Shown here: positions 2,584 through 8,570 of the stretch, in pieces
How positions within the stretch are numbered: the stretch's first letter is position 1
How the letters are laid out: each line of letters starts with the position of its first letter
Assembly: GCF_006345805.1 (NCBI RefSeq)
Contig: NW_021827949.1
Span: forward strand, 1 to 9,332
Reading direction: 5' to 3'
Origin: Octopus sinensis
Lineage: Eukaryota
Length of the DNA: 9,332 bases
Notes under the pieces: model-generated
Databases searched by the model: none
What the model saw: the letters and a program-made list of their open reading frames with translations, nothing else
Told to the model about the DNA's origin: nothing
Position numbers and translations under genes: made by a program

Positions 2584-2638
2584 TGTATGTGTGTGTATGT
2601 ATATATATATATATATATATATATCTACATACATATAT
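2180..2638. repeat. Compound (TA)n/(TG)n/(CA)n/(GA)n microsatellite block
   Basis: Directly visible. Confidence 0.92.
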
Positions 2639-2640
2639 TG

Positions 2641-3154
2641 AGGTTATGAGAGGAAATGGTATAAATAAGACCCAGAGGTGTCAGGTAATAATACTTTGAA
2701 TACTACGTAAATACTATAGCAGCTTACACACAAGGTACAGGAATCTTTTATGTAAACCATTCTGCCTAAATAATGGAGCTACAGATACAATATCCCTGCA
2801 TATCTCACATCTATTTTCATTCCTCCACTCCACTTTCTATTTCATATCTTATCTAGAATAATTATTGCTTAACAATCTTCTCACACCGTCTACGCTGAAG
2901 GGATATATAAATTATCCCGGAAACAGCTCTAAGACCTTCTCTTTATAAATGTTCTGAGATCTTTCACAGCCTGAGACTTTCATCTCATTCTGTTAATTTT
3001 TTTTCATATCTACGCATGCTGATATATGAGATACGTTGGACTCCTCATTTCCTGAATCACCGAACATGGAGCTTAACTACAGTCTGTCCATAGCACTTAC
3101 TCAGCATTACCTAACACCTTTGGGATTTATTGACCCCATTACCTCTCATAACCT
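2641..3154. mobile_element. ~514-bp non-coding element with imperfect 49-bp terminal inverted repeats, flanked by (TA)n (MITE-like or PLE-derived)
   Basis: 2641-2689 AGGTTATGAGAGGAAATGGTATAAATAAGACCCAGAGGTGTCAGGTAAT vs the reverse complement of 3106-3154 AGGTTATGAGAGGTAATGGGGTCAATAAATCCCAAAGGTGTTAGGTAAT: 41/49 identical. Weaker similarity continues inward. Confidence 0.75.
2888..2935 (+). ncRNA. Degenerate minimal type I hammerhead ribozyme motif
   Basis: GTCT..CTGAA (core incomplete), stem II GGGATA/TATCCC, G-GAAAC-AGCT-CTA-AGAC. The stem III loop AGCT is palindromic and stem I is GTCT/AGAC, but the core is shortened and the stem III closing pair is mismatched. Confidence 0.45.
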
Positions 3155-3155
3155 G

Positions 3156-3211
3156 TATATATATATAATATATATATATATTATATTATAGAGAGAGAGA
3201 GAGAGAGAGAG
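3156..3211. repeat. (TA)n-(GA)n microsatellite
   Basis: Directly visible. Confidence 0.95.
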
Positions 3212-3384
3212 TCAATATGAGACAATATATTAGACAAAGTTTAATATTGTTCATCAAATAAATAAAATGAAGCAGATTTGATGTTAAAATGGATGATCCT
3301 TTTATTTCATAATCCCATCCCAGACAATTGTTTCTGTGAGAAAAAAAACAAGATATCCATAAAGAGATTTAAAGGAAAAAGATT

Positions 3385-3566
3385 ACGGAGATGTACTTGC
3401 ATAGCAAGTGATTTGATCTGAGATCGTGTGCTGAAACGTAAACAATTGCAGCGTGGAAGGTGTTTGTAAGACATTTAAGAAACACACAAAAGCCGTTCGA
3501 TTTACTTCAACATTGAAGTTTAATTTGTCAAAATATTTTGGTCGCTATAAGACCAAAATTTGACAC
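3385..3566. repeat. Probable interspersed repeat fragment with two hairpins
   Basis: Hairpins ACTTGC-ATA-GCAAGT and TGTCAA-aat-ATTTTGGTC-(7 nt)-GACCAAAAT-TTGACA (3526-3565). The sequence resembles a common octopus repeat from memory. Confidence 0.4.
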
Positions 3567-3590
3567 TGAATTATTTTTTAGATTGGAAGT

Positions 3591-3633
3591 CCACCTGAAG
3601 ATTGTCGATCAAGACAAGAAACGATTGTAGTGG
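3591..3633 (+). ncRNA. Minimal type I hammerhead ribozyme with intact core
   Basis: Stem I CCAC (3591-3594)/GTGG (3630-3633); core CTGAAGA 3595-3601; stem II TTGTC/GACAA with a 6-nt loop; GAAA 3618-3621; stem III C-GATT-G; GUA cleavage triplet with the cut after 3629. Confidence 0.8.
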
Positions 3634-3809
3634 CGGTTTTTTTGACTATTTATTAAAATTTTATGTATTGATTAAGTCTTTCCTTGTTTGTTTTGCAAAA
3701 TAGTGGTTTTGTCTCGAATAATATTTTATAATATTTTACTATAAAATCGATTTAATCCTAAATCTGATTTTTTCCCTGTAAATTTGGATTTATTCCCTAT
3801 ATTTATTAT

Positions 3810-3811
<2 letters not shown>

Positions 3812-3870
<59 letters not shown>
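3812..3870. repeat. (TA)n microsatellite
   Basis: Directly visible. Confidence 0.95.
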
Positions 3871-3872
<2 letters not shown>

Positions 3873-4067
3873 CTTTACTTATATAAAAGGGCTTAGTAAA
3901 ATAAATTACTTTGCCGCATACTGAACTCATTAGAAATAGCAGCTAAATAAACATTTATAAAACTATTTCTAATACTTAAAGAAAACTCTCTCATATAGTG
4001 TTTGCTCAATTCAACTCACGGAAGTATGGGGGGTAGAGACATTAAAAAATCAGATGCAAAGGTTATT

Positions 4068-4121
4068 TGAGAACGTACGTTTCAAGATTAGTCAAAACTC
4101 GACATTTCTATCATCAGCTCA
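4068..4121 (-). ncRNA. Minimal type I hammerhead ribozyme (copy 1)
   Basis: Exact reverse complement of 4593-4646. Confidence 0.7.
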
Positions 4122-4592
4122 GACTCACTCCCTGGTTTGGATTTGAAACACTGAAAGTGGGAGCATACTCCTTCGGCCTCCTATCGCTTTTGAAGATCCG
4201 CTCGTAACTAACAGTGCCAACAAACCCCAATATGCAAGCGAAGAATTTCTGCTCTCCCCCCTTTTCCACCAGCGTGGGTTAAAATCAGCAAACACTATGC
4301 TTTTTTCGGTAAAATACGAGGCATTTAAATAGAGAGAGATGAATTATAATTTCAACAATTGAGGGTAAAATTAATTAATTAATCAATTTCACCAAGTGTT
4401 CAGTATGCAAAGGGACCATTTAAGGCGAATTCAAATTATTACATTATATAAAAGGGCTTAGTAAAATAAATTACTTTGCCGCATACTGAACTCATTAGAA
4501 ATAGCAGCTAAAAAAAACATTTATAAAACTATTTCTAATACTTAAAGAAAACCTCTCTCATATAGTGTTTTCAAATCCAAACCAGGGAGTTC

Positions 4593-4646
4593 TGAGCTGA
4601 TGATAGAAATGTCGAGTTTTGACTAATCTTGAAACGTACGTTCTCA
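4593..4646 (+). ncRNA. Minimal type I hammerhead ribozyme (copy 2)
   Basis: Stem I TGAG/CTCA; core CTGATGA 4597-4603; interrupted stem II (AGA/TCT and GTCGA/TTGAC); GAAA 4631-4634; palindromic stem III CGTACG; GUU triplet with the cut after 4642. Confidence 0.72.
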
Positions 4647-5148
4647 AATAACCTTTGCATCTGATTTTTTAATGTCTCTAGCCCCCATACTTCCGTGAGT
4701 TGAATTGAGCCAACCTATATGAGAGAGGTTTTTTAAGTATTAGAAATAGTTTTATAAATGTTTTTTTTAGCTGCTATTTCTAATGAGTTCAGTATGCGGC
4801 AAAGTAATTTATTTTACTAAGCCCTTTTATATAATGTAATAATTTGAATTCGCCTTAAATGGTCCCTTTGCATACTGAACACTTGGTGAAATTGATTAAT
4901 TAATTAATTTTACCCTCAATTGTTGAAATTATAATTCATCTCTCTCTATTTAAATGCCTCGGATTTTACCGAAAAAAGCATAGTGTTTGCTGATTTTAAC
5001 CCACGCTGGTGGAAAGGGGAGAGCAGAAATTCTTCGCTTGCATATTTGGTTTGTTGGCACTGTTAGTTACGAGCGGATCTTCAAAAGCGATAGGAGGCCG
5101 AAGGAGTATGCTCCCTTTCAGTGTTTTCAAATCCAAACCAGGGAGTTC

Positions 5149-5202
5149 TGAGCTGATGATAGAAATGTCGAGTTTTGACTAATCTTGAAACGTACGTTCT
5201 CA
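5149..5202 (+). ncRNA. Minimal type I hammerhead ribozyme (copy 3)
   Basis: Identical to 4593-4646. The predicted cut after 5198 lies 556 nt from the previous site. Confidence 0.72.
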
Positions 5203-5518
5203 AATAACCTTTGCATCTGATTTTTTAATGTCTCTACCCCCATACTTCCGTGAGTTGAATTGAGCAAACACTATATGAGAGAGGTTTTCTTTAAGTATTA
5301 GAAATAGTTTTATAAATGTTTTTTTTAGCTGCTATTTCTAATGAGTTCAGTATGCGGCAAAGTAATTTATTTTACTAAGCCCTTTTATATAATGTAATAA
5401 TTTGAATTCGCCTTAAATGATCCCTTTGCATACTGAACACTTGGTGAAATTGATTAATTAATTAATTTTACCCTCAATTGTTGAAATATATATATATATA
5501 TATATATACATTTTATTT

Positions 5519-5561
5519 ACATCGTTGCGGCTGATATACCCTCCACCCTTAATCAGGTGTT
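5519..5561 (-). ncRNA. Inactivated hammerhead copy of the same family as 5864-5909
   Basis: Minus strand reads ACAC-CTGATTA-AGGGTGGAGGGTATATCAGCC-GCAA-CGATG, with core substitutions (CTGATTA, GCAA). Confidence 0.6.
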
Positions 5562-5616
5562 TTGGGGAAATTTCAAACCTGGGCTCTCATTCCTCAGGTA
5601 TCTTACGATGTTGCTA

Positions 5617-5863: not shown

Positions 5864-5909
5864 GACACCTGATGAATGCTGGAGGGCATATCAGCTGAAA
5901 CGTTGTGTT
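5864..5909 (+). ncRNA. Minimal type I hammerhead ribozyme with intact core
   Basis: Stem I GACAC/GTGTT; core CTGATGA 5869-5875; stem II GCTGG/TCAGC with the closing pair mismatched in this copy; GAAA 5897-5900; loopless palindromic stem III AACGTT; cut after 5904. Confidence 0.72.
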
Positions 5910-6857: not shown

Positions 6858-7432
6858 GTGGCAAGCTAGTAGAAACGTTAGTGCCCCGCGCGAAATGCTT
6901 AGCCGTATTTCGCTCGTCGCTAAGTACTGAGTTCAATTTCCGCCGAGGTCAACTTTGCCTTTCATCATTTCGGGGTCGATAAATTAAGTACCAGTGACGC
7001 ACTGGGGTCGATTAATCGACGTAATCCGTTTGTCTGTCCTTGTTTGTCCCCTCTATGTTTATTCCCTTGTGGCTAATAAAGAAACAGATATTTCGCCCGT
7101 CGATACGTAATGAGTTCAATTTCCGCCGAGGTCAACTTTGCCTTTCATCATTTCGGGGTCGATAAATTAAGTACCAGTTGCGCACTGGGGTCGAAGTAAT
7201 CGACTTAATCCGTTTGTCTGTCCTTGTTTGTCCCCTCTATGTTAGCCCCGTGTTGGTAATAAAGAAACATATTTCACCCGTCGATACATTTTTAGTTCAA
7301 ATTCAGCCGAGGTCAACTTAGCCTTTCTTTATTGCGGGGTCGATAAATTAAGTACCAGTCAAACACTGAAGGTCGATATATTCGACTTGTCCCCCGCCCA
7401 AATTTCACGCCCTGTGCCTAGTGTAGAATTGT
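6858..7432 (+). mobile_element. tRNA-derived SINE with a Meta/MESC-type central domain, internally triplicated (~182-bp units)
   Basis: Head TGGCAAGCTAGTAGAAACGTTAG. Units start with TATTTC at 6906, 7089 and 7270. Each unit has a B-box-like AGTTCAA[A/T]TTC and the motif GAGGTCAACTTTGCCTTTCATCATTTCGGGGTCGATAAATTAAGTACCAG, which resembles the MetaSINE/MESC domain. Confidence 0.8.
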
Positions 7433-8369: not shown

Positions 8370-8570
8370 TATCCAATCATGAAAGCACAAAAATCACAAC
8401 AACGCGAGGACGTGGAACAAATATAGTATTATTGGACGCTCAGGAAAGAAGGGAAGAAGGAGGGTTTAACGTTTCGAGCGGAGCTCTTCGTAGGAAACAT
8501 AGGAGAAGGAAAGATCCAGAGAAGGGAAGACAGAGGAAAAACAATCGCCAACGGTACACACGCGGTCATA
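8370..8570 (-). mobile_element. Short interspersed repeat carrying a degenerate hammerhead, adjacent to (TA)n
   Basis: ~200-bp purine-rich block between TA tracts that contains the HHR-like motif at 8464-8498. Confidence 0.5.
8464..8498 (-). ncRNA. Ultra-minimal hammerhead-like motif with mutated core
   Basis: Minus strand reads GTTT-CCTACGA-A-GAGC-TCC-GCTC-GAAA-CGTT-AAAC. Stems I and II and the AACGTT palindrome are intact; the core CCTACGA differs from CTGANGA at two positions. Confidence 0.55.

Follow-up and report, generated by a model that had tools for sequence, protein, structure and literature searches.

Introduction

Minimal hammerhead ribozymes (min-HHRs) have been described in the pseudo-LTRs of metazoan Penelope-like elements (PLEs), where thousands occur per genome, mostly as single motifs and sometimes as opposite-strand pairs (Cervera and De la Peña 2014, PMC4209133). 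According to the same report, most min-HHR copies are single and belong to probably truncated PLEs, a single motif showed no detectable cutting whereas dimers were weakly active, and the consensus at more than 80% includes an extra nucleotide after A9 as well as a G10.1-C11.1 pair. PLE hammerheads with a short stem III are reported to cleave as dimers (Lünse, Weinberg and Breaker 2016, via PMC6765202 and PMC6466107), and the PLE hammerhead of Anolis is described as cutting only with the element's protein and as dispensable for insertion in vitro (PMC11167929). PLEs are said to be biased toward microsatellite insertion (PMC8557442), and they are given as 6.83% of O. vulgaris (PMC13282606). For animal retrozymes, a preprint describes solo monomers as common and traces the families to PLE ends; it also reports nine Xenopus dimers, of which one cleaved and eight were inactive (bioRxiv 10.64898/2026.07.22.740005).

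Here we follow up a candidate hammerhead in a stretch of 9,332 nucleotides of Octopus sinensis DNA (the window), which is AT-rich and holds many TA, CA and ATT microsatellites and repeats. Our main reading, to which we assign a probability of roughly 0.7, is that positions 3582-3800 are a solo non-coding end-piece of a PLE, of the pseudo-LTR type, or a short non-autonomous derivative of one, carrying a hammerhead that would depend on dimer formation.

Results

Direct reading of the sequence and a search with a type I descriptor confirmed a genuine hammerhead motif at 3591-3633 on the forward strand, of the minimal type I kind and with a short helix III. Neither this descriptor nor a relaxed one matched any other site on either strand of the window. 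The 5' strand of stem I (3591-3594) forms four Watson-Crick pairs with 3630-3633 and is followed by the core segment C3-A9, CUGAAGA (3595-3601), and by stem-loop II (3602-3617), whose arms, 3602-3606 and 3613-3617, form five Watson-Crick pairs around a 6-nt loop, with U10.1-A11.1 closing the stem at the core. Then come GAAA (G12-A15.1, 3618-3621), CGAUUG as a wobble-palindromic helix III (3622-3627), and U16.1 and A17 (3628-3629), with the cut predicted after 3629; all these parts lie on the forward strand. The complete set of core nucleotides and the perfect stems of 4 and 5 bp given in the preliminary description were upheld, with Watson-Crick pairs throughout. All core positions listed for type I hammerheads in PMC3088659 (C3 U4 G5 A6 N7 G8 A9, G12 A13 A14 A15.1, U16.1 and H17) are present, and 1.1-2.1 and 10.1-11.1 are paired.

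The closest known motifs are the PLE min-HHRs, in particular those among them whose helix III is small and palindromic (PMC4209133). As far as these are described there, the octopus motif shares with them the type I topology, the full core, the short stem I and 5-bp stem II, a helix III that is self-complementary and depends on a dimer, flanks rich in U on the 5' side and in AU on the 3' side, the occurrence as many single dispersed copies, and a further motif close by in opposite orientation. It differs in two respects that are absent from the preliminary description: the core-side closing pair of stem II is U-A rather than the usual G-C, and stem II follows A9 directly, an extra nucleotide being obtained only if U3602 and A3617 are taken as unpaired. 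In the published min-HHR alignment of 56 rows, which we read by eye from PDF text that does not keep columns, U10.1-A11.1 appears in two rows (Hydra PLE and S. mansoni 3) and the extra nucleotide is likewise missing in two. Even U·U is reported at 10.1-11.1 of natural hammerheads (PMC3088659). G10.1-C11.1 and the extra nucleotide are consensus but non-absolute features of PLE min-HHRs, and the octopus motif has neither. Also unlike the PLE min-HHRs, it completes its palindrome by G·U wobbles, and it is known here without a link to an ORF.

The motif heads a very abundant animal repeat of ~220 bases, which we call family B (about 3582-3800, forward strand), consisting of the hammerhead, an AT-rich tract and a TA tail, with approximate limits drawn from contig depth and loose ends. 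Among 24 listed public runs, 20 contain part of 3230-3810; none of these is on record as RNA, and one, X6, is possibly RNA. We aligned the contigs of four runs, drawn from three studies and perhaps including one that is the source of the window, to 3215-3800 at 80% likeness, with a variant threshold of 5%, and obtained 8,202 (X1), 23,812 (X2), 8,281 (X3) and 1,039 (X6) contigs. Their summed depth, which measures abundance and is not a copy number, outlines two abundant repeats, family B and a neighbor at 3383-3554 that we call family A. The bin 3595-3614 within the hammerhead was 313-1,050 times as deep as the bin 3355-3374 in X1-X3 and only 5 times as deep in X6, and the depth of the bin 3555-3574 was 0.06-1.1% of that of the hammerhead bin across the four runs. 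In each run, the 5' edge of family B was sharp, looking abrupt rather than gradually truncated, and the motif belonged to a large genomic consensus family. The preliminary description had called the hammerhead standalone and had given it a repeat family of its own, without sequence relation to the other HHR units. A blastn comparison of 3215-3800 against the window found neither a second copy nor a match to the other hammerhead-like units, and when the 3' tracts of four units, those of families A and B among them, were aligned, no convincing kinship emerged, in agreement with a separate family; standalone holds within the window, where the copy is the sole one, but not beyond it, where family B is very abundant.

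Downstream of the motif, an AT-rich tract on the forward strand (3634-3797) is non-coding, with stops closing the reading frames, and carries variants at 3644, 3648, 3691, 3716 and 3753 as well as indels among the contigs. It runs into a (TA)n microsatellite at 3798-3871, seen both by TRF and in the contig table, as the earlier account of an AT-rich stretch ending in (TA)n had it. Family B has a loose end at 3799, in an ATT/TA tail (21 contigs in X3), and some copies, represented by 19 contigs of X3, stop in (TA)n near 3730, so that the TA tail is common to contigs of both endings. A 21-bp tandem duplication occupies 3759-3798, directly before the TA tail. Together, the duplication and the TA-tailed end near 3730 suggest two 3' termini in family B.

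At helix III, CGATTG rather than CGATCG is the sequence of family B in three of the four runs. Among the 40 variant rows listed of 45, none falls into 3519-3643 at the 5% threshold. When totals per run were compared with the listed variants, X3 and X6 left none unlisted, and the unlisted variants of X2 comprised one A>T, one C>T and one G>A, without any T>C, so that T>C at 3626 stays below 5% in X2, X3 and X6; in X1, the unlisted variants were one T>C of unknown place and one C>T. Variants near alignment ends can be missed, and 3626 lies 44 bases inside. Because no T>C reaches 5% at 3626 in these three runs, CGATTG is not a decay product. The preliminary description had expected a CGATCG consensus for the family; we reject it, since CGATCG is missing from X2, X3 and X6, while noting the one unplaced T>C of X1. 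None of the five substitutions listed falls inside the motif, which is compatible with chance (p 0.34; p 0.14 when indel sites are included, for 9 sites in all), and selection on the motif, considered on the basis of this low variation, was rejected as not significant. Covariation was not visible in family B: the motif has no listed variants of at least 5%, hence nothing to covary.

The size and abundance of family B invite comparison with metazoan non-LTR retrozymes, which as described (PMC7229834; 10.64898/2026.07.22.740005) are likewise non-coding, a few hundred bases long and low in GC, carry a type I hammerhead and occur also as solo monomers. Family B could accordingly be a non-LTR retrozyme or SINE-like monomer, whose ~220-nt RNA would start near 3582, be tandem elsewhere, be cut and circularised, and borrow PLE enzymes. 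The unit length lies within the reported 150-450 bp (PMC7229834), solo monomers are reported as frequent in such families (10.64898/2026.07.22.740005), and the sharp 5' edge fits, but the window holds no tandem copy, compared with the at least two tandem units by which such elements are recognized, and no contig of the four runs joins the end of family B back to its start, with the reservation that TA tracts break contigs. Moreover, the retrozyme hammerheads tested in PMC7229834 are canonical, with loop-loop contacts, and the minimal ones are described there as resembling PLE motifs, whereas the motif of family B is minimal. We consider this origin unlikely.

Between the two abundant repeats lies a low-depth spacer of 27 bp (3555-3581, forward strand) with a pyrimidine run and an AG at 3580-3581, 9 nt upstream of stem I and at the 5' edge of family B. 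By analogy with the introns of Penelope pseudo-LTRs, its end is a possible 3' splice site; in D. virilis, the Penelope intron is reported to end at helix I (PMC4209133). Counting both strands, the window has 13 such pyrimidine-AG sites, or about 0.01 per slot of 15 nt, and this one was noticed post hoc. Two contigs of X6 form a loose end of family B at 3582, where they diverge, and their upstream letters are dissimilar (agreement 0.68). Because most copies of family B lack the spacer, it may be mere flank. A more far-reaching reading would make family B a free mobile unit of ~220 nt, whose 5' end would result from a 3' splice site at 3581/3582 and whose hammerhead would function despite the fixed non-consensus U10.1-A11.1 pair and G·U helix III and might then cut via pairing between separate transcripts or with help from a PLE protein; we hold this to be speculative and rather improbable.

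CGAUUG is self-complementary via two G·U wobbles, and the self-duplex of 3621-3628 has 8 computed pairs at -5.8 kcal/mol, compared with -10.0 for a perfect palindrome. For the 43-mer, the minimum-energy fold of two copies was the full double hammerhead, at -21.4 versus 2 x -6.5 kcal/mol; this fold is allowed by 27 of the 256 possible 4-nt loops, and chance self-complementarity of the loop amounts to 36 of 256. Among the four units that we folded, this motif only gave a complete double hammerhead as its two-copy minimum. The 15.2-16.2 positions and loop 3 are palindromic through the two G·U pairs, and with flanks included (3582-3640 or 3582-3660) the best two-copy fold was no longer the double hammerhead. 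In its very short palindromic stem III and its predicted double-hammerhead fold, family B resembles the dimer-cleaving PLE hammerheads as these are reported, and it differs from them in having no tandem partner in the window and in that its cleavage is only predicted.

In the monomer, the pair probability of helix III was at most 0.04 in every context. Stems I and II dominated the isolated 43-mer, with a stem I probability of 0.76-0.95 that fell to about 0.02 with the flanks 3582-3660, where stem II was at about 0.1. Because the monomer fold is minor in context, a lone copy is probably inactive, and the models thus point to the copy in the window, which has no partner, as probably inert. That the motif would nonetheless cleave efficiently here on its own, as one hammerhead, is very improbable: its complete core, the dominance of stems I and II in the isolated 43-mer and the existence of U·U at 10.1-11.1 in natural hammerheads (PMC3088659) would favor it, but helix III hardly pairs in any context of the monomer, the flanks favor other folds, a published single min-HHR was inactive (PMC4209133), and even as dimers eight of the nine Xenopus constructs were reported inactive (10.64898/2026.07.22.740005). 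The preliminary description had named the motif the best single candidate for activity; it is indeed the best-formed one, as the sole descriptor match and the sole double-hammerhead fold among the four units, yet the minor monomer fold speaks against activity of a single copy.

The occurrence of the motif is far beyond chance. We shuffled the 7,267 non-microsatellite bases of the window 3,000 times with dinucleotides preserved and, on both strands, obtained 0 matches with Watson-Crick stems of at least 3 bp, and 5 hammerhead matches with 4-bp stems when G·U was allowed. No Rfam hammerhead family matched at E<=5 in the whole window or at E<=10 in 3560-3680, the only Rfam matches in the window being microsatellite-driven ones of miRNA type and similar noise, and folding z-scores were unremarkable (-0.70 to +0.79) and uninformative. 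A chance resemblance in a repeat unrelated to ribozymes, with which the lack of an Rfam match, these z-scores and the absent covariation would agree, is highly implausible in view of the 0 of 3,000 shuffles and the other hammerhead-like units of the window. Scans of metagenome contigs and viral contigs for the hammerhead motif gave no match, and a match in one prokaryotic genome was rejected as chance, with stem II broken and stem I and the cleavage site absent. Five family motifs sought in each supplement were absent from those of PMC13282606 (5,371 characters, with no repeat library) and PMC8557442, and a literature search, beyond whose reach most subscription papers lay, found no publication on family B.

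Family A (3383-3554, reverse strand) is an unrelated high-copy repeat, even more abundant than family B, that stands head-to-head with it, has loose ends at 3382/3383 and 3554, and is cut off inside a hammerhead-like motif. We rejected 3383-3554 as part of the family B element, as depth collapses at 3555-3574 and the family A consensus continues differently. The half motif in the window (3524-3554, reverse strand) could be extended by a loose-end consensus, which in X1-X3 draws on 37-71 contigs of each run and has an agreement of 0.71-0.78. By eye, the two together make up a hammerhead-like motif whose stem I has 7 bp and whose core is GUGAACA; an additional G precedes a stem II of 5 bp with G-C as its closing pair, and AAUAUU, a perfect palindrome, is followed by UU. 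At 3540, core position 12, the window copy has C, and no variant is listed there; 7 of the 32 contig pieces listed end at 3539, immediately before this position. On its sequence, family A is somewhat more probably than otherwise a min-HHR with a natural G3-C8 core swap, with the letter at position 12 known from the window copy only. The natural core swap reported in PMC3088659 and PMC4209133 is U3-A8, and G3-C8 is treated as an engineered variant or rescue in PMC3884650 and PMC11167929, as found in a literature search beyond whose reach most subscription papers lay.

Several further features of the window were recorded. Another hammerhead-like unit is present in three copies (4593-4646 and 5149-5202 on the forward strand, and a core at 4117 on the reverse strand) within a direct and inverted repeat of ~556 bp; it has a perfect CGUACG palindrome and an interrupted stem II, and its best two-copy fold is not a hammerhead. 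Degraded minimal hammerhead-like motifs of other repeat families lie at 5865-5908 (forward), about 8465-8505 (reverse) and about 2890-2930 (forward). A long near-perfect inverted repeat (285-930 and 956-1596), with 306 nt at 100%, outer arms of 208-230 nt at 93-95% and a 25-nt spacer, is either a recent inversion or an assembly artefact. At 6906-7359, a 183-bp unit occurs in 2.5 tandem copies with 89% matches, and 3215-3374, between a GA microsatellite and family A, is a low-copy repeat with several subfamily variants, for which no identity was found.

Discussion

The likeness of the motif to PLE min-HHRs, together with the dispersed abundance of family B and its TA tail, is consistent with our reading of 3582-3800 as a solo PLE end-piece or short non-autonomous derivative. 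Family B ends in an AT-rich, microsatellite target as PLEs do, a trait that is not specific to PLEs. No ORF for RT or GIY-YIG and no long ORF was found in 2600-5600, and no full Penelope-like element was recovered. Further points against the reading are the two missing consensus features, the absence of visible covariation, the loss of the double-hammerhead fold once flanks are included, the frequency with which a self-complementary loop is expected by chance, and the abrupt look of the 5' end. We infer the Penelope link, as well as transcription and cleavage of family B, and propose the following course of events. Family B would have been reverse-transcribed into TA-rich targets, leaving many copies in the animal genome. 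A single hammerhead would be unable to make a stable helix III, whereas in a transcript of two units both ACGAUUGU stretches could pair antiparallel through six Watson-Crick and two G·U pairs, with each 5' stem I strand pairing with the 3' strand of the other unit. Two active sites would form and cut after GUA, a reaction that is probably slow and may require the element's protein.

The significance of the motif itself is modest: its kind is already published, animal genomes having been described with such motifs by the thousand, and family B adds another example. Its particular value lies in the two missing consensus features and the helix III that is completed by wobbles family-wide, which make it a useful construct for tolerance tests. 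The possible natural G3-C8 core of family A is a more surprising lead than the motif of family B. If these readings are true, families A and B would form a natural test set for the tolerance of core and helices in the ribozymes of PLEs.
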